Shown here piece by piece: positions 3,024 through 55,496 of a DNA stretch of 64,000 bases. The DNA comes from an uncultured Candidatus Saccharibacteria bacterium (GTDB lineage: Bacteria > Patescibacteriota > Doudnabacteria > UBA920). The stretch is from positions 473 to 64,472 of the forward strand of contig CAZTXY010000003.1 of the NCBI GenBank assembly GCA_964617815.1. The letters run 5' to 3'. The position numbers were made by a program, and so were the translations under genes. The notes beneath the pieces were generated by a model. That model ran no database searches. It saw nothing but the letters and a program-made list of their open reading frames with translations, and had not been told where the DNA came from. Positions within the stretch are counted from its first letter, which is position 1. The number at the start of each line of letters is the position of its first letter.

Positions 3024-4004
3024 CTAAAGCAGACCGATTTTTTGTTTGACTTCGAGAAGAGTTTGGCTGGCAATGGCTTTGGCTTTTTTGGCTCCATCTG
3101 CCAGAATTTGGGCCAAGGCATCTTTGTCTTTGAGAAGCGCTTTTTTCTTTTCTCGGAATTCTGCGAAGTGTTCTGATATGTCAGTAGCTAGAGTTTCTTT
3201 GAGTTCGCTATATTTTATAGAATTGTCAGCAATTGCATCTTCAAAGTAATTGATCTGTTCCTTAGTTCCAAAATGTCTGAGCAAAAATAACAAATTTTCA
3301 ACTCCAGGTGACTTGGCCCCTTCTGTGGCGGTCACAGCTTTTTTTAGTTTGCGGGAAATTTCCTCAGGACTGTCATCTAACCAGATGGCGTTGTCTATAT
3401 CACCAGTTTTGCTCATTTTCTTTTCTGGATTTTTTAAGCTTTTAATTCGCAAAGGTTTTTGCACAAAAGTTTGTGGTTCAGAAAAAGTTTTGCCAAAGCG
3501 ATTATTAAATTTGCGCGCTACAATTCGGGCGAGTTCGACATGCTGAGCTTGGTCTTCTCCTACTGGAACCCCGTCTGGTTTATAAAGTAAGATATCTGCA
3601 GCCATGAGCGTAGGGTAGGTTAACAGACCAGCGTTTATATTTTCTTTGTGCTGTTTTGCTTTGTCTTTAAACTGCGTCATGCGTTCTAATTCACCAAGAG
3701 GGGTTATGCAGTTAAATATCCAAGCGAGTTCGCTATGTTCAGATAGATGATTTTGCAAAAAAATACTAGAATTTTTTAAATTTAGTCCTGCAGCTAAATA
3801 TTCAGCAACTACTTCTAAAGTGTCTTGTTTTAGTTGTTTTGGTTCGAATGGCGTGGTGATAGCATGAAGGTCCGCCACAAAAAAGAATCCTCGGTAGTCA
3901 GGATTATTGCTTAACTCGATGAATTGTTGTAACGCACCAAGATAATTACCAATATGTAATTTGCCGGTGGCTCGTATACCGGCTAAAAATGTTTTTTGCT
4001 TCAT
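3024..4004 (-). CDS. trpS: Tryptophanyl-tRNA synthetase
   Basis: HIGH motif (GKLHIGNYLGAL) and KMSKS motif (KMSKT) at class-I TrpRS spacing, 326 aa. Confidence 0.9.
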   Translation of the reverse strand: MKQKTFLAGIRATGKLHIGNYLGALQQFIELSNNPDYRGFFFVADLHAITTPFEPKQLKQDTLEVVAEYLAAGLNLKNSSIFLQNHLSEHSELAWIFNCITPLGELERMTQFKDKAKQHKENINAGLLTYPTLMAADILLYKPDGVPVGEDQAQHVELARIVARKFNNRFGKTFSEPQTFVQKPLRIKSLKNPEKKMSKTGDIDNAIWLDDSPEEISRKLKKAVTATEGAKSPGVENLLFLLRHFGTKEQINYFEDAIADNSIKYSELKETLATDISEHFAEFREKKKALLKDKDALAQILADGAKKAKAIASQTLLEVKQKIGLL

Positions 4005-5053: not shown

Positions 5054-6859
5054 TTATATTTCAATTATAACTGGCAAGATCATTGGGCGTCGTTCGGTTT
5101 TTTTGAAGAGGTATTCACCAACTTCGTCGCGTACGACTTCACGGAGGTAAGCCCAGTTTGGTTCTTGGTTTTTCTTGTCGCCATTTTCAACAAGCTTGCG
5201 TACTTCGTGTTTAACTTCGCGCACAAGGTCGTCGTTATTTTTCATATAGATGAATCCGCGAGAAATAATGTCCGGTTGGTTTATAAGTTTACCAGTTTTA
5301 CGGTCGAGTGTGACAATAATCACAAACATTCCGTCTTCGGCCATGACTTTACGGTCACGAACAACAACTTCACCAACGTCTCCAACGCCAAGACCGTCGA
5401 CAAAGACTTGGCCGCCTGGAATTTTACTTTCAAGGCGCTTAGCTTGGCCATTGTTGTCAATTTCCAAGACGTCGTAGTTGTTCAAAACATGAATGCGCTC
5501 TTCAGGAATACCCATCAATTGACCAAGTTTACTGTGGGCGACAAGCATGTGATGTTCGCCGTGAATTGGAATAAAATATTTTGGTTTAGTCATGTTCAGC
5601 ATGAGCTTAAGCTCTTCTTGCTTGGCGTGACCAGAAGTGTGAATGTCCAAAATTTTGTTGTAGATAACGTCAGCACCAGCGCGGGTTAAGTTGTCTAAAA
5701 CCGCGACAATGGAATTTTCGTTACCGGGAATTTGAGAAGCAGACACAATGACAGTATCTCCTTTTTTAATGGAAACAGTTTTGTGTTCGCCACGGCTCAT
5801 GCGAGCAAGAGCAGAAAATTCTTCACCTTGAGCACCAGTTGTGAGAATCACAATTTGATTGTCTGGATATTTTTTGGCTTGTTCAGACTTTACGATTAAT
5901 TTTGGCTCGATTTTGAGGTACCCAAGTGACAAACCAATTTCAACTGTGGCCACCATTGAGCGTCCTGTGACAATAACTTTTCTGTTATATTTGGTTGCAA
6001 TGTCAAAGACTTGTTGCATACGGCCAATAAGGCTTGAGAAACTCGAAAAGATAATGCGGCCTTTGCTGTCTTGAAAAATGCGGTCAATGGACGATCCAAT
6101 TTCGCGTTCACTGGGACAGTAACCGCCAAACAGCGCGTTGGTAGAGTCGCTCATTAAAACTGTTACACCTTCTTCACCAAACTTGGCTAGCTTATTAAAT
6201 TCCATCAGTCGTTCGTTGACTGGAGTGTGGTCTATTTTCCAGTCACCAGTATGGATAACTTGACCAACTGGGGTGACAATAGACATTCCGACAGCGTCGG
6301 GGATGTTGTGGTTTACACCAAAGAATCGAATTTGAAAATTACCCAAGCGAATAACGTCGTCGATATTAACAACATTGAGTTGAACTCGGCTAACGAGATT
6401 AAACTCTTCAAGACGTTTTTTTATCATAGCCGCAGTTAGCGTTAAAGTGTAGATTGGTGGGTCACCAATGCGGGGAATGATGTAGGGGATAGCGCCAGTG
6501 TGGTCTAAGTGGCCATGGGTAATAAAGACTCCACGAATTCTACGCTTGTTGTCTTCGAGCCATTTTGTGTCTGGAATAATGTAGTCGATGCCGGGGGTAG
6601 TTTCATTTGGAAAAGCAAAGCCCATGTCGACAATAATAATATCGTCGCCATACTCAAACACTGTCATGTTCGAGCCAACTTCTTCAAGGCCACCAAACGG
6701 AATAATTCGAAGTGTGGTGCGTGAGACGGTATGACTTGAAGTTGAAACTGGTGTTGCTGTTTGTGGCAGATTATCGCCGGGTCTGGCAATCGGTCGTGGT
6801 CCTGTATTTCTTGGAGGACGACTGGAGCGAGAACTACTGGCATTAGGTTTTCTTATCAT
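5054..6859 (-). CDS. rnj: Ribonuclease J (metallo-beta-lactamase/beta-CASP RNase)
   Basis: Metal-binding motif FITHGHLDHTGAIPY and beta-CASP organisation in about 550 aa. An unusual N-terminal extension of about 50 aa rich in Ser, Arg and Pro precedes the catalytic domain. Confidence 0.88.
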   Translation of the reverse strand: MIRKPNASSSRSSRPPRNTGPRPIARPGDNLPQTATPVSTSSHTVSRTTLRIIPFGGLEEVGSNMTVFEYGDDIIIVDMGFAFPNETTPGIDYIIPDTKWLEDNKRRIRGVFITHGHLDHTGAIPYIIPRIGDPPIYTLTLTAAMIKKRLEEFNLVSRVQLNVVNIDDVIRLGNFQIRFFGVNHNIPDAVGMSIVTPVGQVIHTGDWKIDHTPVNERLMEFNKLAKFGEEGVTVLMSDSTNALFGGYCPSEREIGSSIDRIFQDSKGRIIFSSFSSLIGRMQQVFDIATKYNRKVIVTGRSMVATVEIGLSLGYLKIEPKLIVKSEQAKKYPDNQIVILTTGAQGEEFSALARMSRGEHKTVSIKKGDTVIVSASQIPGNENSIVAVLDNLTRAGADVIYNKILDIHTSGHAKQEELKLMLNMTKPKYFIPIHGEHHMLVAHSKLGQLMGIPEERIHVLNNYDVLEIDNNGQAKRLESKIPGGQVFVDGLGVGDVGEVVVRDRKVMAEDGMFVIIVTLDRKTGKLINQPDIISRGFIYMKNNDDLVREVKHEVRKLVENGDKKNQEPNWAYLREVVRDEVGEYLFKKTERRPMILPVIIEI

Positions 6860-7075: not shown

Positions 7076-7118
7076 CACTGTCATCCTTCTCCGCCGGAGG
7101 CGGATCAGGATGACAGTG
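7076..7118. repeat. MITE/REP-like palindromic element, copy R2 (cactgtcatcct...aggatgacagtg)
   Basis: 12-bp TIRs around a ccgccggaggcgg core. It sits at the AT-rich to GC-rich transition. Confidence 0.7.
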
Positions 7119-7475: not shown

Positions 7476-8117
7476 TTAGGCCTGATGAGCCATTCGGTCC
7501 AAGAACTCGCGACCCTTGCCGACGTCGATGTTGATAGGCACGCCACTTGCGCAGAGCGGGCAGTCCGCCTCATCCCAAGCTTCGAGGATGACGTCGAGCA
7601 GTGACGAAAGCCTGGGCACGTCTCCTAACTGCTCTGCAGTCACACCACCTCGGTTGCAGATAGCTCCGAGCCCGATGACCTTGCCACCAATTGCCCTTGT
7701 GGCTTTCACAACCTTGTGTGCCGTTCCGCCGGTGGTCAGAACGTCTTCGACCACGAGGACGTTCTTGTCGGCGACGAGCTTGTCGTAGCCACGCTTGATC
7801 ACGAAGTTGCCTTCGTAATTTTCGGCGTAGACCGCCAGCACTTCTTTCCCTGTGATCTCGCTGAGATGCATGGCCGTCCATTGCGACAGAATGACTCCGC
7901 CGATAGCTGGCCCGATGACCACCTCGACGTGATTGTAGAGGAACTCAGTTGCGATCTTCCGGCAGATCTTCGAAACTTCAAAGATGTGCGGATACACGGC
8001 GTCCTTGTTGACATAGGCATTGCCGTGCTTTCCGCTGGTGTAGACGACGTGGGTGTTTGTGATGACAGCCGAAACCTTTCCGAGGATTTCCAACACGAAC
8101 TCTTCGTTGCTTTTCAT
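7476..8117 (-). CDS. pyrE: Orotate phosphoribosyltransferase-like type I PRTase
   Basis: PRPP-binding motif VLVVEDVLTTGGT. Length 213 aa equals OPRTase. Adjacent to pyrF. GC-rich. Confidence 0.6.
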   Translation of the reverse strand: MKSNEEFVLEILGKVSAVITNTHVVYTSGKHGNAYVNKDAVYPHIFEVSKICRKIATEFLYNHVEVVIGPAIGGVILSQWTAMHLSEITGKEVLAVYAENYEGNFVIKRGYDKLVADKNVLVVEDVLTTGGTAHKVVKATRAIGGKVIGLGAICNRGGVTAEQLGDVPRLSSLLDVILEAWDEADCPLCASGVPINIDVGKGREFLDRMAHQA

Positions 8118-8129
8118 CCGATGATCTCC

Positions 8130-9044
8130 TTATCTGCAGAGGTTGATCTGGTCGCGAAGCTTCATGGTTTCGCGACGTGCCGCTCTAGCGTAGTCATCTT
8201 CCTTGGAAGCGAAGATGATCTTACTGGAGCTGTTGATAATCATGCCGTAGCCGTGGCTGTCAGCTGTGGCCATAACCGTTGCTTCAACATCTCCGCCTTG
8301 GGTACCAATACCCGGCAAGAGAAAGGCCATGTCGCCGACGATCTCACGAACTTCCTTGGCTTGGAGCGGGTAGGTCGCACCAACGACGAGAAGGCAGTTG
8401 CCGTTGGTGTTCCAGTCCCGAGCGACGTTGAACGCGACCCGCTGGTAGAGAGGCATCGAATCCTCACAAAGAAGATTCAGCCAGGTTTTGGCTTTCATGC
8501 CTTTGGGCTTTTCTCGCGGATCGAGCGTCAGCGTGTGCAGATCCTGAAATTCACCTGCGCCTTTGTTGGTTGTCCGGCAAAGCACGATGATGCCCTTGTC
8601 CTTTTGGTCCAAGAACGGTTGCATCGCCTCTTTGCCGAGGTAGGGGTGAACGGTGATGGCGTCAGCTCGGAGCCAGCCAAAACTGGCAGTGACGTAGCAG
8701 TTATTGGTATTGCCGATGTCGGCGCGCTTGGCGTCGAGGATCACCGGCACATGCGGTGCGAAGCGGTTAATGTCGGCAATGGTTCGCCATAGTGCGCTCA
8801 TGCCTTCGTTGCCACTCTCTTCGTAAAACGCCGAATTGAGCTTGTAGGCACAGACGATGTCCTGCGTCGCTTCCACGATTTCGCGGTTGAACGCGACCAT
8901 CGTGTTGGCGATGCCGACTGTACATTCGTGTCCCGGCCTGTAGGCAGACTCCGGAATCTTTCCGAATTCGCTGTCCAGACCCACGCAGACGAAGTTACCA
9001 ACGCTCCACCGCTCTTCGAGCAGTCGCTGGAAATTTCTTCTCAT
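8130..9044 (-). CDS. pyrF: Orotidine-5'-phosphate decarboxylase, type 2
   Basis: Motifs VCVGLD and ILDAKRADIGNT (type-2 ODCase DxKRGDIxxT). The start is moved to MRRNFQ, which has SD aaggagg 7 nt upstream. Confidence 0.7.
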   Translation of the reverse strand: MRRNFQRLLEERWSVGNFVCVGLDSEFGKIPESAYRPGHECTVGIANTMVAFNREIVEATQDIVCAYKLNSAFYEESGNEGMSALWRTIADINRFAPHVPVILDAKRADIGNTNNCYVTASFGWLRADAITVHPYLGKEAMQPFLDQKDKGIIVLCRTTNKGAGEFQDLHTLTLDPREKPKGMKAKTWLNLLCEDSMPLYQRVAFNVARDWNTNGNCLLVVGATYPLQAKEVREIVGDMAFLLPGIGTQGGDVEATVMATADSHGYGMIINSSSKIIFASKEDDYARAARRETMKLRDQINLCR

Positions 9045-9083
9045 GGTTTTGCCTCCTTCTAGGCTGTCAAACAACTTTAAAAC

Positions 9084-9106
9084 CCGCTACTTAGCGGGAT
9101 TGAGTC
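9084..9106 (-). terminator. Intrinsic terminator (cccgcta agta gcggg then ttttaaagtt on the minus strand)
   Basis: It lies downstream of the minus-strand purM-like gene. Confidence 0.5.
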
Positions 9107-9216
9107 TGGTCGTAGTTTAGTAGAAATATAGAAAAAATGCAATAGTAAAATATTTGTAAAAAAAATTGGTGGGCCTGCTGTCTTGCGACAGCAGGCCCAA
9201 GCCTAGTGACACTTGG

Positions 9217-10386
9217 TCACCGGATGTTAAGTGACTCTCCCTTAAACTCGAGATACTTCGGGAGGATGACCACTCTCTTGTCAACGCTCCTTTTGATGTA
9301 TCCAGCCTTGATTGCATCAAAGTTGTAGTCCTGGGCGATCATCATGGCCTTGCTTACATCTGCCTTCGATATGTAGATAGCAAAGCCTGCGCCCATGTTC
9401 AGATTGCCGAAGGCTTCCTCATCGCTGATTGGGCCATGCTTTTGAAGGAACGCGAAGATTGGTTGTTCTTTCGGAAGCTCCTCGATGATGTACCGAAAGT
9501 TACGGTTCGCGCGCATCAGCTTGCGCCACCCGTGGCCGGTGATGTTCACTGCGTAGTGAATATCAACGCCCCACTTCTGGCATTCCTCCATGAACTTCTG
9601 GTAGATGCAGGTTGGAGTCAGAAGCGTTTCGCCGTAGGTACGACCGTCTGAAAGTTCGGTGAGGTAGCCCTTGGGCAAAGCATGCAGGGGGAAGGACTGC
9701 GGCAGGATGAGGTTACTGAATTTACGCCAAAAGCCATCCTTTCTGTCGCCGATTGATCTTGCCAAGGTCAGGCCGTTGGCGTGAATGCCAGAACTCCCTA
9801 GGAGAATTATGACATCACCATGCTGGATTTTATTTTCCGTGATCAGCCGACTCTTTGGTTCAATGATCCCGGTAGCTGAGCCAGAGATGACTGATTTTCC
9901 GGGGATGATAATGTCTTTGAGAGTCGGCGTTTCGCCGCCACCCCAGACACACCCACTGAGCATGCAGGCTTTTTTCCATCCATTGATGAGATCTATACTT
10001 CGCTGTTGGTTGCCGAACCAGCTTGATTCGCCGACGGCCAAGTGCATCATTACAGACACTGGCATTGCACCGAGCGTGATGATGTCGTTGATGATCATCG
10101 CCATAGTGCATTGCGCGACTTGGTCGTAGTACGACTTGCCGGTCAAAGCGCTCATCTGGTCTGCGACGATGTTCTTGGTACCGAGGCCCTCTTCGACGTG
10201 AGCTAGGATTACCTGCGGCATTTCGACGAGATAGGCGCTTTCGCCACGGCTCATCGAGATTTCATAAAAGCCGAAGCGCTCGATGTTCGGAGCTGTTTCC
10301 AAGCCAGCGGCCAATGCTTGCCGTTTGAACGGATCCATGGCGCCGTAGTCAACGCCCGTGCTAGCGTATGTCATGTTCTCTGTCAT
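9217..10386 (-). CDS. AIR synthase-related protein (PurM-like; probably phosphoribosylformylglycinamidine cyclo-ligase)
   Basis: The N-terminal GVDY...VILAHVEEGLGTK resembles the PurM VLxSGTDGVGTK ATP-binding loop. 389 aa. GC-rich. Confidence 0.55.
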   Translation of the reverse strand: MTENMTYASTGVDYGAMDPFKRQALAAGLETAPNIERFGFYEISMSRGESAYLVEMPQVILAHVEEGLGTKNIVADQMSALTGKSYYDQVAQCTMAMIINDIITLGAMPVSVMMHLAVGESSWFGNQQRSIDLINGWKKACMLSGCVWGGGETPTLKDIIIPGKSVISGSATGIIEPKSRLITENKIQHGDVIILLGSSGIHANGLTLARSIGDRKDGFWRKFSNLILPQSFPLHALPKGYLTELSDGRTYGETLLTPTCIYQKFMEECQKWGVDIHYAVNITGHGWRKLMRANRNFRYIIEELPKEQPIFAFLQKHGPISDEEAFGNLNMGAGFAIYISKADVSKAMMIAQDYNFDAIKAGYIKRSVDKRVVILPKYLEFKGESLNIR

Positions 10387-13213: not shown

Positions 13214-13252
13214 TATACTAATTTTATAGTGGTCGTGTCAATAACGACTAGA

Positions 13253-13290
13253 AACTAGTTACTAGTATCTAGTCACTAGTAGAGGCAAGG
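13253..13290. repeat. TAGT-heptad array (aaC TAGTTAC TAGTATC TAGTCAC TAGTAGA) in the divergent secG / RNHCP intergenic region
   Basis: Four or five 7-bp units built on the ACTAGT palindrome. Confidence 0.55.
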
Positions 13291-13304: not shown

Positions 13305-13613
13305 ATGATTCAATCCAAAAAGTTTCAGAGAACTAAAGAAGATTTTAGCTGCACTCATTGTGGACAGGTTGTTTTTGGTACAGGGTACACAAACCATTGT
13401 CCAAAGTGTTTGTGGAGTAAGCATGTAGACATTAACCCAGGTGATAGAGCTAGCGAATGTAGTGGAATGATGACACCAGTTCAAGCTGAGTTTAAAGCCG
13501 GGGAGTGGGCACTGCTTCATCGCTGTGAGGTTTGCGGGTTTGAGAAAAAAAATAAAACAGTGCCTGATGATGATTTAAATGCAATTTTAAAATTAGCAAC
13601 TAAGTTGCTATAG
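13305..13613 (+). CDS. RNHCP-domain zinc-ribbon protein
   Basis: CxxC...YTNHCPKC...CxxC arrangement, 102 aa. Confidence 0.5.
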   Translation: MIQSKKFQRTKEDFSCTHCGQVVFGTGYTNHCPKCLWSKHVDINPGDRASECSGMMTPVQAEFKAGEWALLHRCEVCGFEKKNKTVPDDDLNAILKLATKLL

Positions 13614-15485
13614 ATATTTTTTTATAATTTCAGCTTTGGATTTGCCGACGAGGTCGGTTAGGATTTGAAGTGAGGCTGTGCGAATGTTTGCGACACTGCC
13701 AAGTTTATTTTTGAGCAGTTTTTTTGTTTTGGGGCCAATACCTGCTACTTCATCGAGTGCGGATTTGACTGCTTGCTTACTGCGCAGTGCGCGATGAAAA
13801 GTAATGCCAAAACGGTGAGCTTCGTCGCGCAGGCGTTGGAGAAGTTGAAGCGCCGGTTGGTCGTGGTCAAGGATAATTGGTTGTTTTTTTCCGGGGACAA
13901 AAATTTCTTCAATGCGTTTAGCCAAGCCAATGACCGGAATTTTTAAACCTTTTTCTTTTAAGACTTTGACTGCTACAGAAAGTTGCCCTTTGCCGCCGTC
14001 TATAACTAGAAGATCCGGCGTTGGCCAGGTATCTTTGTTATTAGCACTGTCATTCTGAGGTGCATCCGAAGAATCTCTGTTTTTGTCATTGAGATCCTTC
14101 ACTCCGTTCAGGATGACAGTAGGTAGGGGGGTACTTCTCGCCAATCGGCGAGTCAGCATCTCTTCCATCATGGCAAAGTCGTCTGGCGTGGACTTACCGG
14201 TAATTTTGAATTTGCGGTATTCGGACTTTGCCGGCAGGCCATCAATACAAACGACCATACTCCCGACAGGGTTAGTGCCTTGGATGTTGCTTATGTCGTA
14301 GCCTTCTATTCTTTTGGGAATTTTTGTTAAGCCAAGCACAGTTTGCAGTTGCTTTAGGGCAGAGTTTATGACATCGCGATTGTCTGCTTGGCTCCGTTGC
14401 CATTTTTGTAAATATTCTTGCGCATTGGTTTGGCCAAGTTTAACTAGGTCGCGCTTTTTCCCCCGCGTAGCTATCTCTATAGAGATTTTTGTTTTGCTTC
14501 TGGTTCGTAGCAGGAGGGCTATTAGAGCTTCGTTGGTCGTGCCACTTTGCAAAATAATGAGTTTGGGCAAATTGGAAGTGTCGGCGTAATAATTTTCTGC
14601 AAATTTTTGCAAGACGTCGCTATCTTGCGTATTTGATTTTATATTATAGATAAAACTTTCTTTGTCGATAAGTTTGCCCGCGCGAATTTTAAATAAATTT
14701 ACGCTACCATTAATGCCTTCTCGGAAAACTGAGATAATATCCCAAGAAACTTTTTTTGGCATAATGGCGATTTGGCGTTCTTGCAAAATATCTAAGCTGC
14801 TGACTTGGTCACGCAGGCGGGCTGCGCGCTCAAACTGTTTGCGACGACTCGCGCTTTGCATTTGGGTTTTAAGTTGGCTTGTAATTTTAGCAGTTTGCCC
14901 GGAAAGAAACAGAACAATGTTGTTAATTTGTTCTGCGTATTCAGTAAAAGTTATGTTTCCTACGCACACACCGGGACAGCGGTGAAGGTGATAGTAAAAG
15001 CAAGGGCGCTTGCCGACTTGGTTATTGCTACAAAATGGAAAAATTTTTCGAACTAGATCGAGCGTAGTTTTTATTTTTTTAGTCGAGGAGTATGGTCCGA
15101 AATATTTTATGCTCCCGCTATTGTTTTCAACTTTGCGTGCATAGCTAATTTGCGGAATTTGCGTGGAGTAGTCAATGGTAATAAAAGCATAATTTTTATC
15201 ATCTCGTAGTTTAATGTTGTATGGGGGAGTGTATTGTTTAATTAACGTGTTTTCTAAAAATAAACTTTCCAGTTCCGTCTGGACTACAACATAGTCAAGA
15301 TCTTGGGCTTCGCTAATCAAAAAGGGCAGTTGAACGCGCGTGTCCTGACCGCTAAAATATTGAGCTACTCGCGATTTTAAGTTTTTAGCTTTGCCCACGT
15401 ATAAAACATCACCGCTAGCACCTTTGAATAAGTACACTCCTGGCTTGGCAGGCAAGTCTTTAATTTTTTCTTTAAGAGAGTTCAT
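13608..15485 (-). CDS. uvrC: Excinuclease ABC subunit C
   Basis: N-terminal GIY-YIG domain (KPGVYLFKGASGDVLYVGKAKNLKSRV), UvrBC-interaction region, C-terminal RNase-H-like and HhH domains. It contains an in-frame 25-codon insertion encoded by a palindromic repeat element. Confidence 0.9.
   Translation of the reverse strand: MNSLKEKIKDLPAKPGVYLFKGASGDVLYVGKAKNLKSRVAQYFSGQDTRVQLPFLISEAQDLDYVVVQTELESLFLENTLIKQYTPPYNIKLRDDKNYAFITIDYSTQIPQISYARKVENNSGSIKYFGPYSSTKKIKTTLDLVRKIFPFCSNNQVGKRPCFYYHLHRCPGVCVGNITFTEYAEQINNIVLFLSGQTAKITSQLKTQMQSASRRKQFERAARLRDQVSSLDILQERQIAIMPKKVSWDIISVFREGINGSVNLFKIRAGKLIDKESFIYNIKSNTQDSDVLQKFAENYYADTSNLPKLIILQSGTTNEALIALLLRTRSKTKISIEIATRGKKRDLVKLGQTNAQEYLQKWQRSQADNRDVINSALKQLQTVLGLTKIPKRIEGYDISNIQGTNPVGSMVVCIDGLPAKSEYRKFKITGKSTPDDFAMMEEMLTRRLARSTPLPTVILNGVKDLNDKNRDSSDAPQNDSANNKDTWPTPDLLVIDGGKGQLSVAVKVLKEKGLKIPVIGLAKRIEEIFVPGKKQPIILDHDQPALQLLQRLRDEAHRFGITFHRALRSKQAVKSALDEVAGIGPKTKKLLKNKLGSVANIRTASLQILTDLVGKSKAEIIKKYL
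14046..14120. repeat. MITE/REP-like palindromic element, copy R3, inserted in frame inside uvrC (encodes ...NGVKDLNDKNRDSSDAPQNDSANNKD...)
   Basis: TIRs cactgtcattctgagg / ttcaggatgacagt. 75 bp = 25 codons with no stop. The coordinates map to UvrC residues about 456-481, just before the conserved LLVIDGGKGQ block. Confidence 0.7.
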
Positions 15486-17124: not shown

Positions 17125-20001
17125 ATGCCTACAAAGAAGATAAAAACTACTGACAATGTTAGTAACGCGATTATTATTCGCGGGGCGCGCCAACACAATT
17201 TAAAAAATATTGACGTTGACTTACCACGTAACAAATTGATTGTTATGACCGGTCTTTCCGGTAGTGGTAAGTCTTCTTTAGCTTTTGATACGATTTATGC
17301 AGAGGGTCAGCGTCGTTACGTGGAGTCGCTTTCAGCTTACGCGCGCCAGTTTATTGGTTTGATGGACAAACCAGATGTCGACAAAATTGAAGGACTTAGC
17401 CCTGCCATTTCTATCGATCAAAAATCAGCGAGTCACAACCCGCGTTCAACAGTTGGAACTGTTACTGAAATTTATGACTACTTGCGTTTACTATACGCTC
17501 GTGTCGGTGTGCCCCATTGTCCAGTTTGTGGAAAGAAAATTTCTGGCCAAACCTTGCAAGCCATGACAGACCAGTTGATGAAGCTTCCAGCAGGAACTAA
17601 GCTGGTTTTGCTCGCACCGTTTATACGAGACCAAAAAGGTGAACATAAAGCAGTGTTTGAACAGATTAAGCGTGCTGGTTTTGCGCGTGTGCGAACTGAT
17701 GGCATGCTCATGGACTTGAATGAAGCTCAGGGCTTGAATTTAGATAAGCAAAAAAAACATAGCATAGACGTTGTTATTGACCGCATTACAGTTAGCCCAG
17801 ATGACCGTGGGAGAATTTCTGAAAGTTTAGAAAAAGCTCTTGACCTTGGTGACCAAATTGCAATTGCACTTGTTGGCGAAGAAGGAAAAGCCAAAGAACA
17901 ATTATTATCTCAAAAATTTGCTTGTCCCGACGGGCACATGTCACTTTCTCAGCTGGATCCCCGTGATTTTAGTTTTAACAGTCCGCATGGGGCTTGTCCG
18001 GAATGTAAAGGTTTGGGAACTAAGCTTAATATTGAACCAGAATTAGTAATTCCTAATCAGCGTTTGACACTCGCTGAAGGGGCAGTGCGCCCTTGGAGCA
18101 AAACTACATCAAGACTGACTTGGTATAGCCGAATTATGCAAGCTGTGGCAGAAGAGTACGGCTTCTCTATTAATACTCCGATTAAAGATTTACCAAAAAA
18201 ATATTTGGACGTTATTTTATATGGGACGGGCGACAAAAAAATTCATGTGAAAGGGGAGTCTTCTACGCGCGAGGCGACTTATGAATTTAACACAGCTTTT
18301 GAAGGAGTTATCCCAAATTTAGAACGTCGCTATGGCGAAACAGACTCAGAATACATGCGCGGCGAGATTGAAAATTATATGCGCATTCGAGTTTGCCCAA
18401 CTTGCAACGGCAAGCGTCTTAAGCCTGAAGTCTTGGCAGTTACAGTTGGCGACCGGGGAATTGTCGATGTGTCACAAATGAGCATTGAAGATGCTGATAA
18501 GTTTTTTACAGATCTACCAAAAAAATTGTCGAGCAAGGATATGCAAATTGCCAAATTAATTTTTAAAGAAATTAGCGCAAGGTTAAACTTTTTGCTAAAT
18601 GTTGGTTTGTCGTACTTGTCGCTTGACCGCAGTGCGGACACTCTCTCAGGCGGTGAGGCTCAGCGTATTCGTTTAGCCACTCAAATTGGCTCTGGCCTAA
18701 CTGGTGTGCTCTATATTTTAGACGAGCCTTCAATCGGATTACACCAACGAGACAATGGCAGGCTCTTGCGTACTCTTAAAGAACTACGAGATTTAGGGAA
18801 TACAGTTATTGTTGTTGAACACGACGAAGAAACTATCCGCGAAGCTGACTGGGTTGTTGACATTGGCCCAGGAGCGGGTAAGCATGGCGGGGAGTTAGTT
18901 GCTTTTGGCACGCCTGAGGACGTGGCAAAGAATAAAAATTCATTAACTGGACAGTACTTGTCTGGCACAGAGAGCATAGAAGTACCAAAACGCAGACGTA
19001 GTGGTAATGGCAAAAAAATCTCTGTCATTGGTGCTAGCGAGTTTAATCTTAAAGATGTTAATGTCGACATTCCTCTTGGAAAGTTTGTATGTTTGACCGG
19101 CGTGTCCGGTAGTGGCAAATCCACTTTGCTCAACGACATTGTGGCCAAGGCCTTATCAAAATATTTTTACAACAGCAAAGATGAACCTGGTAAGCACAAG
19201 AAACTTTTAGGAATTGATTCAGTTGATAAAATTATCAACATTGATCAGTCGCCAATTGGTAGAACGCCACGCTCTAACCCAGCGACGTACACGGGCGTGT
19301 TTACATTTATTCGCGATTTATTTGCCGACACTAAAGAAGCTAAAATGAAAGGTTACAAGAGTGGCCGATTTAGTTTTAACGTTCAGGGTGGACGTTGTGA
19401 GCGCTGTAGTGGTGATGGTGTGATTAAAGTTGAGATGAATTTTTTGCCGGATGTTTACATTACTTGTGAGGAATGTAACGGGAAGCGTTACAACCGTGAA
19501 GCTTTGGAAATTCACTACAATGGAAAAACTATTGCAGATGTTTTAGAAATGACTGTCGATGAATCGAAAATGTTTTTTGCTAATCTGCCACCAATTAAGC
19601 GAAAGCTGGATACACTTTCAGAAGTTGGTTTGGGTTATATGCACCTTGGCCAAAATGCCACCACACTTTCGGGTGGTGAAGCACAACGTATTAAGTTGGC
19701 AACCGAGTTGTCACGCGCTTCCACAGGGCGTACTCTCTATATTTTAGATGAGCCAACTACGGGACTTCATTTTGCTGACACTAAGCGTTTGATAATTGTG
19801 CTAAACAAGTTGGTAGAAAAAGGTAATACGGTTGTGGTGATTGAGCATAACTTAGATATGATTAAAACCGCAGACTGGATTATTGACCTTGGGCCGGAAG
19901 GCGGCAATAAAGGCGGCGAAATTGTGGCTGTAGGAACACCTGAAGAAGTGGCGAAAGTCAAAGGCAGTTATACGGGTCAGTATTTGAAAAAGATTTTGTA
20001 G
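17125..20001 (+). CDS. uvrA: Excinuclease ABC subunit A
   Basis: Two ABC ATPase modules ([14 protein letters not shown]... and [14 protein letters not shown]...) with zinc-finger insertions. 958 aa. SD aggag. Confidence 0.95.
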
Positions 20002-20013
20002 TTCTAATAATAA

Positions 20014-20078
20014 AAGCCCCGAAATTTCGGGGCTTTAAAAAAAAGGGGCACCCTTTTGCAAAAGGGTGTCCCTTTTAG
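20014..20078 (+). terminator. Tandem intrinsic terminators after uvrA
   Basis: Hairpins gccccgaaatttcggggc and ggggcaccc ttttgcaaaa gggtgtccc, the second followed by tttt. Confidence 0.65.
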
Positions 20079-20080
20079 TA

Positions 20081-20109
20081 TTGACAAAACAGCTAAATTG
20101 TTGTATTAT
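20081..20109 (+). promoter_or_regulatory. Sigma-70-like promoter (TTGACA, 17 nt, TATTAT) for the GC-rich island gene at 20180
   Basis: Consensus -35 and near-consensus -10 with 17-nt spacing. Confidence 0.5.
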
Positions 20110-20179
20110 TTTAAGTTGCATTGACCGGCCAAGTTTTTTAAACTTGGTATTCTGATGTTTCGAATTTGGAGGATTACAC

Positions 20180-20533
20180 ATGTCGAGCGATGACAAAGGC
20201 AAAACGCTTTGGGCCGACTGCGAAAAGAAGGGTCAAGACCTCACTCCGTGCTTCGAGAAGAACAAGGATCTGATCGAGGGGCTTGGTAGCAAGCAGGAAG
20301 TGCCTGCTGGCAAGCCCACTCAGCCACTGGTCCCCACCATCGAGCAGGCCGAACTCGAAAGCACAGAGAAGCCCGATTTCGGTCTGGTGATTATCCAGGG
20401 TTCTTACGGAACCGCTGGGGAGGGAATGGACTCTTTCTTCGAAGAACTGACGACGCCGTGGGTCAATGAGACTCAGCCGCTCAGGCCCATCATCGAGGGG
20501 GCTCTGGCGGCCGACGCAGACGACGACGAATAG
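20180..20533 (+). CDS. Acidic hypothetical protein, 117 aa
   Basis: SD ggagg, 7 nt, then ATG. High-GC codon usage. Terminator hairpin at 20542-20590. Confidence 0.5.
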   Translation: MSSDDKGKTLWADCEKKGQDLTPCFEKNKDLIEGLGSKQEVPAGKPTQPLVPTIEQAELESTEKPDFGLVIIQGSYGTAGEGMDSFFEELTTPWVNETQPLRPIIEGALAADADDDE

Positions 20534-20541
20534 AGATGTGA

Positions 20542-20590
20542 AGCGCGAGTGGAGAGCTGCAGAAATGCAGTCTCTCCACTCGCGCTCTTT
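20542..20590 (+). terminator. Intrinsic terminator (agcgcgagtggagag...ctctccactcgcgct then cttt)
   Basis: 15-bp inverted repeat. Confidence 0.55.
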
Positions 20591-20673
20591 AATTAGTTTA
20601 AAATTGACTTATCGGTCTTAGAAGATTATGGTTGAGTTGAGGGGTTGAATTTTTTGATGAAGGGGGAAGGACA

Positions 20674-21039
20674 ATGAGCACAATATTGCTTGTTGACGGT
20701 GACTACATTCAGCGGCCAGTTTTGGCACGCATGCTCAGTGATGAAGGACGCCAAGTCATCGAGGTGAAAAATGCCGAGGAGGCATTGCAGACACTCCAAG
20801 AGGTTTCTGTGGACTTGGTGATCACAGCCATCAGCCTGTCTCCTCGCATGAACGGCGATCCGTTTTCGGCCGAGCTTCGTGCGGCGGGGCACAAGATGCC
20901 TGTGATCTTGATGAAGAACTACCCCGGCGACGTTGTGGATGAGTCCGCCTATTCTGCGGTACTTCTCAAGCCGCTAGTCTTCGTTCGCATTCACATGGCC
21001 GTCGAGCGGGTGCTGTCTCAGTTCGCAGAAGCGGGCTGA
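20674..21039 (+). CDS. Degenerate stand-alone receiver (REC) domain protein (pseudo-receiver)
   Basis: A clear paralog of the canonical REC protein at 24624. It reads LLVDGD instead of DDD and DLVITA instead of DLVLSD, so the phospho-acceptor Asp is Ala. The conserved Lys (LLKP) is retained. Confidence 0.6.
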   Translation: MSTILLVDGDYIQRPVLARMLSDEGRQVIEVKNAEEALQTLQEVSVDLVITAISLSPRMNGDPFSAELRAAGHKMPVILMKNYPGDVVDESAYSAVLLKPLVFVRIHMAVERVLSQFAEAG

Positions 21040-21198
21040 TTCCTCGCCGCACTCATTCTTCTTGAGCCGTTCTTGTTTCACCTTCGGGTGGGATGAGGGC
21101 GGCTTCTTTGTTTACAAAAAAACAGCGCCGTGTCCCACCGGTGAAGGCGGGGCGTGCGCTGTGTTGCGAAGTGTCATGAAAGCTCAAGTCAGGGAAGC

Positions 21199-22347
21199 TT
21201 AGTCTTGGGCAGTACTCTCTGCCAGCTGTCCCTTGGGAATCTTACTCGCTGGAAGCTGGTAGGCATCGGGTGCGGGAATCAAGGTCGTGACTTCATTGAG
21301 CGCGCCTTGCGTCCAAGTGATTTCATCATCAAGTGCACTGAGAGCCGTCTCAATTTCACTTAACTCCCTGTCCCTTTTTCCGGCCAAGATAGTGAGCCAT
21401 CGTTCATCTCCAAACGTGGCGTAGCCCTGCACTCGCATGAGAAGTGTTTCTTTGCTTTCGCACTTGGCCTTCAGTGTGACCAAGTTGTTCACTCCTCCTT
21501 GCAGTGCTTCCAAGTGCCGGTTGAGGAGTCCGAGCTTTTCGCTCAGGTCTTGTTCCTGAGGGCTGAGGTGTCCTCTGAGTTCCTCACACTCAGAGATTTG
21601 AGCCTCTACACAGTTCAGTAGCGTCTCTCGCTCTGGTAGATCATCATCGTTGAGTTCTTCGATGGCTTGCCGGTCTGCGCGCAATTCGAGAAGATATTCA
21701 TCTAACTCGACGCGCGGTTCGACGACCGCAATCTTGAAGCGTCCTTCCAGATCCACCAGTCTTTTCAAGTAGTCCTTCATGGATTCTTCAAGGTGAAGTT
21801 GAACTTCGCTCAGAAGATAAAGCGGTTCGTTCCAGAAGCGAGAAATTCGTTGGTTGAGCATCTCATCTGCAACCTTGCGGTATCTTTCTACATCATCTTT
21901 CAAGCGCGACAACTCAAGAAGTGGAAAAATTGTGACAATGCTGAGCCAAGAGATGCTGGCAAGGCACGTCCATACCAGGCGAATGGAAAGTGGGTCTGGC
22001 TCAGTTCCGAGGAGAATAAAACTCAGAATTCCTCCAATTATGAAAGCGGGGATAAACATGGCAAAAGCTGGTAAATAGCCAAAGCTGTTTTCTTCCCACC
22101 AGCATTCTCGGAAACAGAATTGGAATCTTTTCCAGAGAGATTGGTTTTGCAGGTCAATCTTCTTTTGGAGAGAGTCCTGTTCTTTGGCGTTCCACTTGCC
22201 AAAGATTTGCGCAGGGATAACTCCCAGCGTTTGTGGGGTAGGTGACCGATCCTCTTTGCTTACGCAAGTGAGGTCGCGGTGAGAGGTGGCAACTTCTTGT
22301 GCCAAATCTCTGAGCTCATCATGCAACACTTCGCTTTCGCTGTTCAT
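21199..22347 (-). CDS. Membrane protein with two TM helices and a long C-terminal coiled-coil region, hypothetical
   Basis: The start is placed at MNSESE, which has SD ggagg 5 nt upstream. Hydrophobic segments LPAFAMFIPAFIIGGILSFILL and SISWLSIVTIFPLL. The C-terminus is heptad-rich. Confidence 0.5.
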   Translation of the reverse strand: MNSESEVLHDELRDLAQEVATSHRDLTCVSKEDRSPTPQTLGVIPAQIFGKWNAKEQDSLQKKIDLQNQSLWKRFQFCFRECWWEENSFGYLPAFAMFIPAFIIGGILSFILLGTEPDPLSIRLVWTCLASISWLSIVTIFPLLELSRLKDDVERYRKVADEMLNQRISRFWNEPLYLLSEVQLHLEESMKDYLKRLVDLEGRFKIAVVEPRVELDEYLLELRADRQAIEELNDDDLPERETLLNCVEAQISECEELRGHLSPQEQDLSEKLGLLNRHLEALQGGVNNLVTLKAKCESKETLLMRVQGYATFGDERWLTILAGKRDRELSEIETALSALDDEITWTQGALNEVTTLIPAPDAYQLPASKIPKGQLAESTAQD

Positions 22348-22517
22348 GTCTGCCTCCAGTTTTTGCCATTTCTGGCTGTGTCTTCCGACCACATAGTATC
22401 TTTTATTTATTGAGTTTTGTCAATACTTTTTGTGAAGAGCGAGGCTTTTCTTTTGTGCTCTTGCAATATATAATAGGTTCCTAGTTAAACTAGAAAAAAA
22501 TCCGCAGGAGGACACAC

Positions 22518-23414
22518 ATGGACACTAGTTGTACGATCGGATCGATTGAGTTTGAGCACCCCATCATGAACGCTGCGGGCTGGTGCAAGAATGCACAGCA
22601 CGCAGAAGAGCTCACGCTCTCAAACAGCTCAGCTGTAGTTTTCGGGTCTATCACCGTTTTGGAGCGCGGAGGGAACGAGGGGAACGTTTTTGTTCCGCCA
22701 CTCAATTCTCTCGGCCTACCAAATCACGGGATGGTTCGTTACCAGCAAGAGCTACCGGCAATCGTGGACAGAGTTCACGAAGCTGGTAAACCTTTCATTC
22801 TCAGCGTGGCTGGCTTTAATCTGTCTGACTTTCGCAAGCTCACTGATCTCGCATGGAGTGTTGGTGCCGATGGTGTTGAGTTGAATTTCGGTTGCCCAAA
22901 TGTTTGGGAAGATGGGAGCCAAAAAAGCCCTGCGTCTTTCCAGCCTGACTTTATCTACCAAACTTTGATGGTAGTGTTGGAGCCGAACTGCGGAGATATC
23001 TTTGTGAAGCTGTCTCCTTATTCGGATCCGTACCAACTCAAGGAGGTTGGGCAGGTCATCAACGAGATTGGTGGTGTGACAGCAGTCGTGACCAGCAACA
23101 CCTTTCCGAATGCTTTGGTTTTTGATGAGGATGGTCGGCCAACGATCTCTGAGGGCAAAGGCTTGGCTGGTTTCAGCGGTCCTGGGTTTATGCCCATTGC
23201 TTTGGGGCAGGTTTTCCAGTTCCGCGCCGCGCTCAACAGTGAGATTGCAGTGATTGGCGTTGGTGGCATCCGAAACGGCCGGGATGTTGCAGACTACATG
23301 AGAGCCGGCGCGTCTGCGGTTCAAGTTGGTACTCATCTCATGTGGCCTGATTCACCAGCTTGTCTTACCTCAATTCTTATCGAGTACACCGATTTCTTGC
23401 AGGGGAAGAAATGA
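22518..23414 (+). CDS. pyrD: Dihydroorotate dehydrogenase, class 1
   Basis: Motifs NAAG, GLPNHG, ELNFGCPN and GVGGIRNGRD. SD aggagg. Confidence 0.8.
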   Translation: MDTSCTIGSIEFEHPIMNAAGWCKNAQHAEELTLSNSSAVVFGSITVLERGGNEGNVFVPPLNSLGLPNHGMVRYQQELPAIVDRVHEAGKPFILSVAGFNLSDFRKLTDLAWSVGADGVELNFGCPNVWEDGSQKSPASFQPDFIYQTLMVVLEPNCGDIFVKLSPYSDPYQLKEVGQVINEIGGVTAVVTSNTFPNALVFDEDGRPTISEGKGLAGFSGPGFMPIALGQVFQFRAALNSEIAVIGVGGIRNGRDVADYMRAGASAVQVGTHLMWPDSPACLTSILIEYTDFLQGKK

Positions 23415-24448
23415 TCCAAGAAAACGTTCTTCAGATGACACTTCGGCGGCCTGATGATTTCCATCATCATTTCCGCGAGGGGGCTATGCTCAATTCTGTC
23501 ATTGAGCATGCGGGGTTGTTTGGTCGAGTTCTGGCGATGCCCAATTTGGCCAAGCCCGTTCTGACAGCTCATGATGCTTTCCGCTATCGCTACGAAATTC
23601 AGTTTGCGATTAGTCAGAAAGCTCGGAGACCGTTTAGGGTTTTGATGACGATTCAGATCACTGAGGCCACAACGCCGGAGATGATCTACGAAGCGCATCG
23701 TGCGGGTGTAGTTGCAGGCAAGGTTTACCCGCTTGGACAGACCACAAACTCTGATGCAGGAGTGACTTCTTACAACAAGCTTTACCTTGTTTTCTGGGCG
23801 ATGCAGGACTGTGGCATGCTACTGCTTCTCCACGGCGAGTTGCCGGATGCTGACATGTATTGCATGAAGCGGGAACGAAAGTTCTTGCCCGTGCTCCGCG
23901 ACATCGCACTTACATTTCCGCGACTTCGTATTGTCATGGAGCATCTTTCCACCCGAGCGGCGGTTCGTGCAGTGCTGAGTCTTCCGGCCAATGTGGCCGG
24001 CACGATTACAGTTCATCACTTACTGTATACGCTCAACGACGTGATGGGTGACAAGTTTCATCCTCATGCCTTCTGCAAGCCAGTGGCCAAGAAACCACGT
24101 GATCTCAAGGCCCTGCTCAAAGCGGCCACCAGTGGCAACCCGAAGTTTTTCTTTGGCTCAGATAGCGCACCACATCTTCGTGGCGCCAAAGAGACTGCGG
24201 ATTGTTGCGCGGGGATTTACTGTCCACCTGACGTTGCGCTTTCACTGCTCGCTGAGATTTTCGAGAGGCGAGGAGCTTCCGACAAACTCGAAGGTTTTAC
24301 TTCCGAGTATGGCGCGAACTACTACGGTCTTGAACCAAACGAGGGCACTATGACTCTCGTCAAGAAGTCGTGGAAGGTTCCAGAAGAGTACAATGGTGTT
24401 GTCCCGCTTTATGCGGGGAGAGAAATCTCATGGCAAGTTCAGTCGTAG
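23411..24448 (+). CDS. pyrC: Dihydroorotase, type II
   Basis: RRPDDFHHHFREG matches E. coli PyrC RRPDDWHLHLRDG. Also KVYPLGQTTNSDAGVTS, LLLHGE and FGSDSAPHLRGAKETADCCAGIY. The start ATG overlaps the pyrD stop (ATGA). Confidence 0.85.
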   Translation: MIQENVLQMTLRRPDDFHHHFREGAMLNSVIEHAGLFGRVLAMPNLAKPVLTAHDAFRYRYEIQFAISQKARRPFRVLMTIQITEATTPEMIYEAHRAGVVAGKVYPLGQTTNSDAGVTSYNKLYLVFWAMQDCGMLLLLHGELPDADMYCMKRERKFLPVLRDIALTFPRLRIVMEHLSTRAAVRAVLSLPANVAGTITVHHLLYTLNDVMGDKFHPHAFCKPVAKKPRDLKALLKAATSGNPKFFFGSDSAPHLRGAKETADCCAGIYCPPDVALSLLAEIFERRGASDKLEGFTSEYGANYYGLEPNEGTMTLVKKSWKVPEEYNGVVPLYAGREISWQVQS

Positions 24449-25496: not shown

Positions 25497-25681
25497 ACAG
25501 ACCTCCTTGGGCAGTAGCACGCTTTTATCATACAAGGTTTCGCTTAGTTTAACTAACTCTTGACATTGGCATGTAAAGTGCTCCAACTCGCATGCTATAA
25601 TAAAAGACTTTGGCAAAGGTCGTGCCAAATAAACTTATTTTTTTGAGATTAAATTTGAAAAAACTAATAAAAAGGACATAT

Positions 25682-37811: not shown

Positions 37812-37879
37812 CGTCATCCTGATCCGCCTCCGGCGGAGAAGGATCTCTGAGATGCTTCATTTCACTCAGCATGACAGTG
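37812..37879. repeat. MITE/REP-like palindromic element, copy R4 (an R2-like core in inverse orientation with an internal 26-bp hairpin insertion)
   Basis: gtcatcctgatccgcctccggcggagaaggat is the reverse complement of the R2 core, followed by ctctgagatgcttcatttcactcagcatgacagtg. It begins right after the stop codon of the giant GT. Confidence 0.65.
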
Positions 37880-40310: not shown

Positions 40311-41177
40311 ATGAATAGCAGAATTCAGAAACTCAAAAATTATTTTAATCAGGAACAGAAAGTTGCAAAGACACTGTCTTCAGTAGTTTTAGTTTTTGCG
40401 TTTATGGCAGTTGTCATGCCAGCGCTTGCTGACTTTGTGTTGCAAGATGATAACTCATCCTGTGGTTATGGCTACGGCTACGGCTATGGCTATGGTTATG
40501 GGTATGGCTACGGTTACGGTTACGGCTGTGACGGTGGCGGTGGATCTTTGATTGTAGATCCTGGTGTAACTAAGACCGTTGACAACGGTACTCCTGCTCC
40601 AGGCGCAACAATTGTCTACACTATCACTGCACATAACTTTGGTAGCACAACAGTTAACGACGTGACTGCCACAGACAGTATCCCAGCTGGGATTACCTAC
40701 GTCAGTCATACACTCACTCAAGGTGTCTATAGTAATGTCACTAGCATCTGGAATGTGGGCACCCTTACCTCTGGTGGGGACGCGACTTTGACCATTACGG
40801 CTACCGTGGATGGTTCCACTGTTGGAACTGTAATAAACACAGTTACAATTACCGGTTCTATCCCAGTTGACCCAAATAGTGCCAATAATACAGCATCTGC
40901 CAATATTGTAGTGACTACATCTGGCGGCGGTGGTGGCGGAAATACAGGCGGCGGCGGTGGTAGTACTGGTGGTGGCGGTGGTAGTACTGGTGGAGGTAGC
41001 AATGACGGAAGTGTTTTGGGAGATAGTACAGGGCCAACTGTAACCCCTCCAACTGGCCGAGTCCTCGGAGACAGCACTTTACCACGAACAGGCTTAGCAG
41101 TAACTTTAGTTCTTACCCTAGTTGCAGTTTCATCTTTAGCCTTTGTTTCTAGAGGTAAAGCAGTTAAAGCAGAGTAG
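40311..41177 (+). CDS. LPXTG-anchored surface protein with a (GY)10 repeat, a DUF11-like repeat domain and a poly-Gly linker
   Basis: Signal/TM N-terminus, YGYGYGYGYGYGYGYGYGYG, the DUF11-like block TVDNGTPAPGATIVYTITAHNFG...VTATDSIPAGITYVSHT, then LPRTG followed by a hydrophobic stretch and an RGK tail. Confidence 0.7.
   Translation: MNSRIQKLKNYFNQEQKVAKTLSSVVLVFAFMAVVMPALADFVLQDDNSSCGYGYGYGYGYGYGYGYGYGYGCDGGGGSLIVDPGVTKTVDNGTPAPGATIVYTITAHNFGSTTVNDVTATDSIPAGITYVSHTLTQGVYSNVTSIWNVGTLTSGGDATLTITATVDGSTVGTVINTVTITGSIPVDPNSANNTASANIVVTTSGGGGGGNTGGGGGSTGGGGGSTGGGSNDGSVLGDSTGPTVTPPTGRVLGDSTLPRTGLAVTLVLTLVAVSSLAFVSRGKAVKAE
40464..40526 (+). repeat. Hexanucleotide microsatellite (GGYTAY) repeated about 10 times, encoding the GY repeat
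   Basis: ggttatggctacggctacggctatggctatggttatgggtatggctacggttacggttacggc. Confidence 0.7.
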
Positions 41178-48956: not shown

Positions 48957-49016
48957 GTGTCATTCCAGCGAAGGCTGGAATCCAGTCTGGATCCCAAATC
49001 AAGTTTGGGATGACAA
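48957..49016. repeat. MITE/REP-like palindromic element, copy R5 (gtgtcattccagcgaaggctggaatccagtctggatcccaaatcaagtttgggatgacaa)
   Basis: Two internal hairpins (ttccagc/gctggaa and tcccaaa/tttggga). It is the near-exact reverse complement of copy R6 at 55497. The ORF-track entry 48775..49002 simply translates this element. Confidence 0.75.
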
Positions 49017-49230: not shown

Positions 49231-49268
49231 GCTAGTTCCTAGTAACTAGTATCTAGTGACTAGTCTTA
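49231..49268. repeat. TAGT-heptad array filling the whole spacer between the TlpA-like stop and the XRE start (gcTAGTTCC TAGTAAC TAGTATC TAGTGAC TAGTCTT)
   Basis: Five 7-bp units. Confidence 0.6.
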
Positions 49269-51090: not shown

Positions 51091-51097
51091 AATTTAG

Positions 51098-55493: not shown

Positions 55494-55496
55494 AGT

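Follow-up and report, generated by a model that had tools for sequence, protein, structure and literature searches.

CGTC-tagged repetitive extragenic palindromes (REPs) are built from units with an unpaired tag (CGTC, TGTC, or CCTC), an 8–9-bp stem that opens with AT, a 4–5-nt loop, and a 3-nt tail that is usually CCA (Di Nocera, De Gregorio, and Rocco 2013, BMC Genomics 14:522, PMC3733652). They occur mostly as inverted dimers, sorted into families CGTC-1 to CGTC-4; no dedicated transposase is known for them, and the five phyla from which they were reported do not include the Patescibacteria (PMC3733652). Dimers inside genes encode 20–36 amino acids and are conspicuously frequent in the genes of UvrABCD, RecBCD, PolA, and DnaE2, and such intragenic copies sometimes mark the only tagged genes in a genome; the supplement of the same study lists REPs in uvrC of R. 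conorii (RC0864, residues 438–446) and of X. autotrophicus (Xaut_2344, residues 550–585) (PMC3733652). The R. conorii members were equated with the Rickettsia palindromic elements (RPEs) RPE-6 and RPE-4 (CGTC-1 and CGTC-4, respectively), and the Neisseria members with dRS3 (PMC3733652). Here we analyze a 64-kb stretch of DNA (hereafter the window; positions count from its first letter) from an uncultured bacterium of the Patescibacteria (assembly GCA_964617815.1, contig CAZTXY010000003.1), in which a 75-nt palindromic element lies in frame inside uvrC. The element is probably selfish or neutral DNA that is tolerated in a permissive loop of UvrC and translated as a disordered surface loop.

A palindromic element lies in frame inside uvrC

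The uvrC gene of the window (13,608–15,485, minus strand) encodes a protein of 625 amino acids whose open reading frame (ORF) matches the full set of UvrC families in Pfam: GIY-YIG, UVR, UvrC_RNaseH, UvrC_RNaseH_dom (PF08459, residues 381–561), and HHH_5. The gene is intact and under purifying selection, with dN/dS values of 0.10–0.125 against three relatives. Within it, at 14,046–14,120, we found an imperfect palindrome of 75 nt with the ends ACTGTCAT...ATGACAGT and terminal inverted repeats of 8–10 nt; on the plus strand it reads ACTGTCATTCTGAGGTGCATCCGAAGAATCTC-TGTTTTTGTCATT-GAGATCCTTCACTCCGTTCAGGATGACAGT. This TGTC-tagged element (minus strand) corresponds to exactly 25 codons of uvrC (T456–S480, peptide TVILNGVKDLNDKNRDSSDAPQNDS) and contains no stop codon and no frameshift. 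A preliminary description of this DNA had recognized the in-frame element and the addition of 25 residues correctly, but the peptide it quoted was shifted by 4–5 residues relative to the element, and the LLVIDGGKGQ segment does not follow immediately, as it had stated: ANNKDTWPTPD stands between the two.

The element consists of two inverted units. In the mRNA sense, the first (14,091–14,120, minus strand) is ACTGTC-ATCCT-GAACGGAGTGA-AGGAT-CTC, a module that is widespread in metagenomes, and the second (14,046–14,077, minus strand) is GAG-ATTCT-TCGGATGCACCTC-AGAAT-GACAGT, a variant private to uvrC copies. Between them lies a 13-nt hairpin loop or spacer (14,078–14,090, minus strand), delimited by the fold and the codon alignment. 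As RNA, the whole element is predicted to form a single long, imperfect hairpin with a folding energy of −29.2 kcal/mol (z = −4.6); 200 shuffled sequences included no equally stable one. An argument for an antisense RNA from strand asymmetry in G·U pairing was rejected: the opposite strand reaches −29.4 kcal/mol, and because both strands fold equally there is no case for such a transcript.

Two of the six reading frames through the element are open, and uvrC uses the hydrophilic one (the grand average of hydropathy of the inserted peptide is −1.2); for this reason the gene could stay intact and the element could be translated as a loop. Predicted tryptic peptides across the insert junctions are STPLPTVILNGVK and DSSDAPQNDSANNK, with cut sites at K463 and K468 inside the insert, and GATTCTTCGGATGCACC is a marker sequence of the exact element variant. 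No Rfam family matched the element, and a 53-aa concatenated peptide query containing the insert gave no protein matches. With the 32-aa insert peptide as query, HMMER was run exhaustively against 1.84 billion representative proteins and gave no match at E ≤ 0.001, a weak test given the short query and a database of only 50%-identity cluster representatives.

We then located the insert in the protein. An AlphaFold2 model of UvrC has a mean predicted local distance difference test (pLDDT) score of 85 and falls below 50 only at residues 454–482 and 569–573. The flanks of the insert are modelled with confidence, as a helix at 436–449 and a strand at 492–496 that carries D496. D397, D496, and H557 occupy invariant alignment columns among UvrC orthologues, and from established knowledge of the T. 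maritima enzyme we take them to be the catalytic residues of the 5'-incision domain. The insert lies inside this RNase H-like endonuclease domain, 16 residues before D496. The modelled domain superposes on two solved RNase H-like domains, 2nrr (TM score 0.92, root-mean-square deviation 1.7 Å) and 3c65 (TM score 0.87), and the sequence of T. maritima UvrC (PDB 2nrt) can be aligned to either flank of the insert but has no counterpart for query residues 456–486 (the query being the UvrC of the window). The model thus predicts a disordered loop at a permissive site. The preliminary description had suggested checking for a surface loop between the RNase H-like and HhH domains; the insert falls within PF08459 instead.

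The uvrC element and known palindromic repeats

The window holds seven copies of the repeat family, with the ends TGTCAT...ATGACA. A scan for GTCAT...ATGAC pairs with matching (complementary) 11-nt ends found five elements, against a mean of 0.155 and a maximum of 2 in 200 dinucleotide-preserving shuffles; two further copies have looser ends. Six of the seven lie between ORFs, as had been noted before, leaving the uvrC copy as the only genic one. The copy at 2,879–2,971 has GCACTGTCATTCTGAG in common with the uvrC copy, and that at 7,076–7,118 is a single long hairpin with TGTC...GACA ends. The two-unit copy at 37,812–37,878 has the layout nearest to that of the uvrC copy (GTCATCCTGA..GAAGGATCTC..GAGATGCTTC..CTCAGCATGAC), a parallel that illustrates the modular make-up of the family. 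The remaining three are a canonical CGTC-type dimer at 48,957–49,016 (TGTC-ATTCCAGC-GAAG-GCTGGAAT-CCA / TGTC-ATCCCAAA-CTTGA-TTTGGGAT-CCA), an inverted copy of it that is 97% identical and lies upstream of dnaK (55,496–55,556), and a further canonical dimer of the CGTC type, whose first loop is enlarged (63,056–63,134).

Judged by their sequences, the copies at 48,957, 55,496, and 63,056 match the CGTC REP definition (PMC3733652) exactly. An 8-bp stem (ATTCCAGC/GCTGGAAT) is present in the first two and in the second unit of the third, the loops are GAAG (4 nt) and CTTGA (5 nt), and all three have CCA tails. The uvrC copy resembles CGTC REPs in part. It ends in (AC)TGTC-AT... and ...AT-GACA(GT), and all six other window copies likewise have a TGTC or CGTC tag. 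It is made of two inverted units able to fold as one large stem-loop, its relatives are dispersed and mostly intergenic, and it is read in the same frame as the R. conorii inserts (VIPAKAGI and ...RGND there, VILNGVKDL and ...PQND in the query). However, its unit stems, which do start with AT, are 5 bp long (ATCCT/AGGAT and ATTCT/AGAAT) instead of 8–9 bp, its unit loops measure 11 and 13 nt instead of 4–5 nt, and each unit is followed by CTC, as in the 37,812 copy, and not by CCA. The CTC pairs within the long hairpin; with such a tail and such short unit stems, it would be the pairing of one unit with the other that gives the hairpin its strength. The host also belongs to a different phylum, the Patescibacteria. 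We conclude that the uvrC copy is most aptly regarded as a divergent member of the CGTC/TGTC superfamily that acts like an RPE or an intragenic REP.

The likeness to RPEs, suggested in the preliminary description, is more than an analogy, for the superfamily includes RPE-4 and RPE-6, themselves CGTC-type (PMC3733652). This link is indirect, by way of the equation of the two RPEs with CGTC families in that study. Like RPEs, the uvrC element is a palindromic repeat that lies in frame in a housekeeping gene of a small-genome host and specifies a hydrophilic peptide at a structurally tolerant site (Ogata et al. 2000 and 2002, summarized in PMC10969869 and PMC3733652). Unlike them, it measures 75 nt (versus ∼100–150 nt for RPE-1), only one of the seven window copies is genic (versus nearly half of RPE copies), and the host phyla are unrelated.

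Two other systems are less close. REPINs, which are mobilized by RAYTs, also consist of two inverted short palindromic units that form a longer hairpin and are dispersed (Bertels and Rainey 2011, PMC3116915). We rejected this identity: the uvrC element ends in TGTC and not GTAG, REPINs are essentially extragenic, and no RAYT (Y1) transposase was found among the scanned ORFs of the window. Bacterial MITEs (transposable elements of the miniature inverted-repeat kind) with in-frame insertions, such as ERIC, QMITE1, and the Anabaena MITEs, are short, of non-coding origin, bounded by terminal inverted repeats, and occasionally translated as fusions (PMC10969869). No target-site duplication was found at the uvrC element, nor a parent insertion sequence with the same ends (no search aimed at the latter was made); the element is not a demonstrable MITE.

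Beyond the window, the left unit CATCCTGAACGRAGTGAAGGATCT has exact matches in more than 120 metagenome contigs of 32–72% GC, where its usual partner, GAGATYCTTCGC...CTCAGRATGACA, follows behind a spacer of variable length. Three viral contigs (L211–L213, IMG/VR) likewise contain the exact 24-nt left module. Few copies are genic. One lies in frame inside a polyprenyl synthetase gene (contig L187), where the PF00348 match spans the insert (E = 5e-18) and the frame is that used in uvrC. In metagenome contig L162, the family may sit, possibly twice, inside a gene for a PMT-like membrane protein, for which the Pfam match is weak. The RefSeq-annotated BREX PglX and MmeI-like genes on two Planktothrix agardhii plasmids, L214 (NZ_LR882951.1, 2960–3140) and L215 (NZ_LR882964.1), hold in-frame arrays of the family (TVIPQTP..., TVILSETKDLSGVVKDNRDSSQAQNDR..., repeated AQND); TVILSETKDLSGVVKDNRDSSQAQNDR is in the same frame as the uvrC copy, and no stop codon interrupts the ∼1,470 codons read of each CDS.

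Could the segment instead be an old and ordinary expansion of the loop in this lineage, or a chimera that assembly produced at a repeat, with a likeness to the intergenic repeats that is coincidental? The uvrC copy does match the other window copies only over its 13–16-nt ends. But its complete two-unit layout matches hundreds of metagenome copies, with exact 24-mer matches elsewhere, and the palindrome is far beyond chance. Moreover, the same insert occupies the same site in two independent assemblies besides the query, L001 (the NCBI metagenome-assembled genome GCA_964360915.1) and L003 (a Logan assembly), so that the artefact of assembly that the preliminary description had named as a possible refutation is not upheld. 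This explanation is already contradicted by the data, and we give it almost no credence.

The insert is lineage-specific and its loop is used repeatedly

We aligned 119 UvrC orthologues from Patescibacteria. Among the matches listed for related loci in genome contigs, most of which were from other phyla, the nearest taxa were Candidatus Doudnabacteria (53–56%). Most of the 119 (about 100) have a 10-residue loop of the form RVNPxNxxDx at the insert site; the uvrC segment is a dispersed palindromic repeat whose insertion here is lineage-specific, which bears out the reading of the preliminary description. The loop is an insertion hot spot, with an insert of 10 aa or more in 28 of the 119 orthologues. 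The DNA of five such loops revealed other palindromic repeats, which differ in frame and offset. In P0007 and P0095, the repeat belongs to the same GTCATCCTGAGG...GAAGGATCTC...AGATTCTTCG...CTCAGAATGACA family, with its left half in a different frame, and it lies 2 codons before the conserved Trp (versus 7 codons in the query). The loops of P0004 and P0092 contain repeats of the GTCATTCC...GGAATCCAG and GTCATTGCGAG...CTCGCAATGAC types, respectively, and that of P0011 an unrelated G+C-rich triple hairpin. L002 (P0002), the closest relative of the query, has a loop with four in-frame AGTACTN 7-mer units (L002 ∼5770–5800) that encode STKYSVLSTQ. On a neighbour-joining tree without support values, loop inserts are scattered, a pattern that implies at least seven separate events for TGTC-type elements; one of the seven, the P0065/P0103 pair, was called from the peptide alone (RHPE and RHSE motifs).

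Short tandem arrays of such palindromic-hexamer 7-mers, (ACTAGTN)n and (AGTACTN)n, also recur in intergenic spacers of the window (13,247–13,281, 58,185–58,219, 61,679–61,709, and 62,082–62,101; also 49,232–49,264, 50,326–50,358, and 51,088–51,134). A second, smaller insertion hot spot of UvrC lies after query residue 122, where the query has no insert and P0001, P0002, P0095, P0108, and others carry repeat-like peptides (SSTPPLAKGRK, PPLSKGRMGEAKTSPDPSLK). About 15 orthologues (P0005, P0006, P0013, P0014, P0031, P0049, P0062, and others) have a conserved N-terminal extension of 50–116 aa (TIYIVKREGKTVFVGRLKQIRRRF...) that the query lacks.

We wondered whether genes of nucleotide excision repair (NER) are preferred or selected targets, with the insert altering UvrC activity (a mutator or hyper-recombination effect, or tolerance of hairpin DNA) to the benefit of the element or the host. 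A benefit through altered excision repair is a speculation of Di Nocera et al., and intragenic REPs are over-represented in UvrABCD, RecBCD, PolA, and DnaE2 (PMC3733652). That the sole genic copy among the seven in the window is in uvrC, and that at least seven orthologue lineages carry repeats in the UvrC loop, is in line with this idea. So is the location of the insert 16 residues before the presumably catalytic D496. However, a permissive loop and purifying selection account for the recurrence without targeting, and the hot spot after residue 122 together with the inserts in polyprenyl synthetase and PglX indicates no specificity for NER. In addition, UvrA (958 aa), encoded in the same window, has no insert, and the UvrC insert is predicted to be disordered and varies in sequence between lineages. 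NER targeting thus appears quite improbable.

The element is younger than its host gene

We compared the element with the rest of uvrC in the three genes that carry it. Between the query and L001, the element is identical at 74 of 75 positions and the rest of the gene at 78%; third codon positions are 100% identical in the element versus 58% outside it, and dS is 0 versus 1.16 (binomial P = 6e-7). The L003 element is shorter by 15 nt (window 14,076–14,090 in the codon alignment). It matches the query at 57 of 60 positions, versus 64% for the rest of the gene, with third positions at 95% versus 42% and dS at 0.075 versus 2.9 (binomial P = 3.5e-7). The right-half 28-mer GATTCTTCGGATGCACCTCAGAATGACA is identical in all three and has no exact match in the genome-contig and metagenome-contig collections. 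By these sequence comparisons, the uvrC element is much younger than its host gene. It is absent from L002, although the UvrC of L002 is 86% identical in amino acids to that of the query, and from L209, which is syntenic with L003 and has a uvrC that is 96% identical (97.5% in amino acids).

The pair L003 and L209 shows how the loop may have been exchanged. Their uvrC genes have a single mismatch in the first ∼1040 nt, and 36 mismatches together with a wholly different loop within nt 1104–1506. The residues R-I-S are common to both loops, yet are specified by different codons. This pattern is what an imported recombination tract leaves behind, here ∼400 nt long with the loop at its centre. The same two genomes also differ in the TGTC family itself: a 210-nt intergenic cluster of TGTC...GACA modules at L003 2240–2450 is absent from the ∼95%-identical L209 at 3547–3556, a presence/absence polymorphism of the family. 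In the query, a maximal-segment test identified a 136-nt tract (14,017–14,152, minus strand) that carries the whole loop and has 133 matches to L001 (versus 79% for the whole gene); with a score of 21.6 against a null maximum of 13.2, it is a probable recombination patch. A second tract of 287 nt (15,154–15,440; uvrC nt 46–332, the GIY-YIG region) has 283 matches to L002 (82% gene-wide; score 41.8 versus a null maximum of 11.7). On this sequence evidence, uvrC is a recombination mosaic among related lineages, and recent lateral spread, not long vertical descent, is the likeliest reason why the element is nearly identical in divergent genes. The route would be recombination of a loop cassette or re-insertion from a common source.

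An element of such low divergence might instead be a functional nucleic-acid hairpin, one that slows ribosomes, controls how stable the mRNA is, or is bound as DNA by a host protein, and that is kept by selection on the nucleotide sequence. The near-frozen synonymous sites (dS 0–0.075 versus 1.2–2.9, with the third-position identities given above), the stability of the fold (z = −4.6), and a left module that is identical in the >120 metagenome contigs of very different GC would all be expected of it. Yet the element is missing from the closest relatives, L002 and L209, about 85% of the orthologues have no insert, and other lineages carry different repeats, in other frames, in the same loop. 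Bases in the loop and bulges are conserved to the same degree as those in pairs, a pattern better explained by recency than by selection on structure, and the hairpin neither favours one strand nor matches an Rfam family. We therefore consider a functional hairpin unlikely.

Several further features of the window were noted. The product of an ORF at 25,610–27,268 is 552 aa long and has 8 matches to RTX calcium-binding repeats. A (GGCTAC)n array at 40,467–40,527, inside the ORF at 40,311–41,177, would encode Gly-Tyr repeats. Positions 8,001–10,000, 20,001–24,000, and 52,001–54,000 have 50–53% G+C against a background of ∼38–45%, and the 52–54-kb segment has long ORFs on both strands.

Discussion

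We propose that the uvrC segment is a non-autonomous palindromic repeat whose two inverted TGTC-tagged units fold as one long hairpin. The element would have entered the 5'-incision (RNase H-like) domain of UvrC, or have been recombined into it, at a loop that is short and varies naturally, leaving the gene intact and being translated as a disordered surface loop of 25 residues. It would persist as selfish DNA and not for a host function, and would be neutral or nearly so for UvrC.

Some observations weigh against this proposal. Translation of the insert is deduced only from its open frame and from the selection on the gene. A second copy of the exact uvrC variant turned up neither elsewhere in the 64 kb nor within any of the loci retrieved, which makes a recent source of transposition hypothetical. 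Nor did we find a transposase, a target-site duplication, or a clean empty site: the 20 window ORFs scanned (the 64 kb being a fraction of the genome) include no transposase domain, Y1 or other; inspection of the seven window copies revealed neither flanking direct repeats nor a GTAG/CTAC motif or common target consistently beside the ends; and of the two available comparisons of filled and unfilled loops, neither is a clean insertion. The frozen synonymous sites are also compatible with selection on the nucleic acid itself. Finally, the uvrC genes of the query and L003 (64% identical in nucleotides) are too divergent for ordinary homologous recombination, and still they have the element at the same junction, after P-L-P codons, with the private right-half variant. 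Neither re-insertion nor descent is a full account of this coincidence; it could reflect re-insertion from a common source or a constraint at the nucleotide level.

Rickettsia and other bacteria had already yielded translated palindromic insertions of this kind, and the event has precedents. What is new is the phylum, the repeated occupation of a single UvrC loop by different repeat families, and evidence for an element-bearing loop that is recent and laterally exchanged. Searches of the literature for palindromic or in-frame elements in the candidate phyla radiation (CPR) gave nothing of relevance, and those for the DNA motif yielded nothing but primer noise. A bolder interpretation is that the loop before the catalytic strand is a recurrent and possibly targeted landing pad for unrelated families of hairpin repeats across Patescibacteria, with the cassette exchanged between uvrC alleles. 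We regard this as a long shot; if true, it could mean a functional interplay of hairpin- or cruciform-forming selfish DNA with excision repair, as the excess of REPs in UvrABCD of other phyla hints.

Taken together, these results extend protein-coding palindromes (RPEs and intragenic REPs) to a large phylum whose members have small genomes, the Patescibacteria (CPR). Across many lineages, a single UvrC loop took up at least three kinds of repeat, namely palindromes with a TGTC tag, triple hairpins rich in G+C, and tandem arrays of 7-mers, and it offers a natural series for how selfish DNA makes new peptide segments in essential enzymes. For annotation, such inserts account for much of the length variation of CPR UvrC proteins (590–761 aa) and are not new domains. 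The contrast between a near-frozen element and a saturated gene, together with the loop-centred tracts, provides a usable marker of lateral exchange among uncultured lineages.

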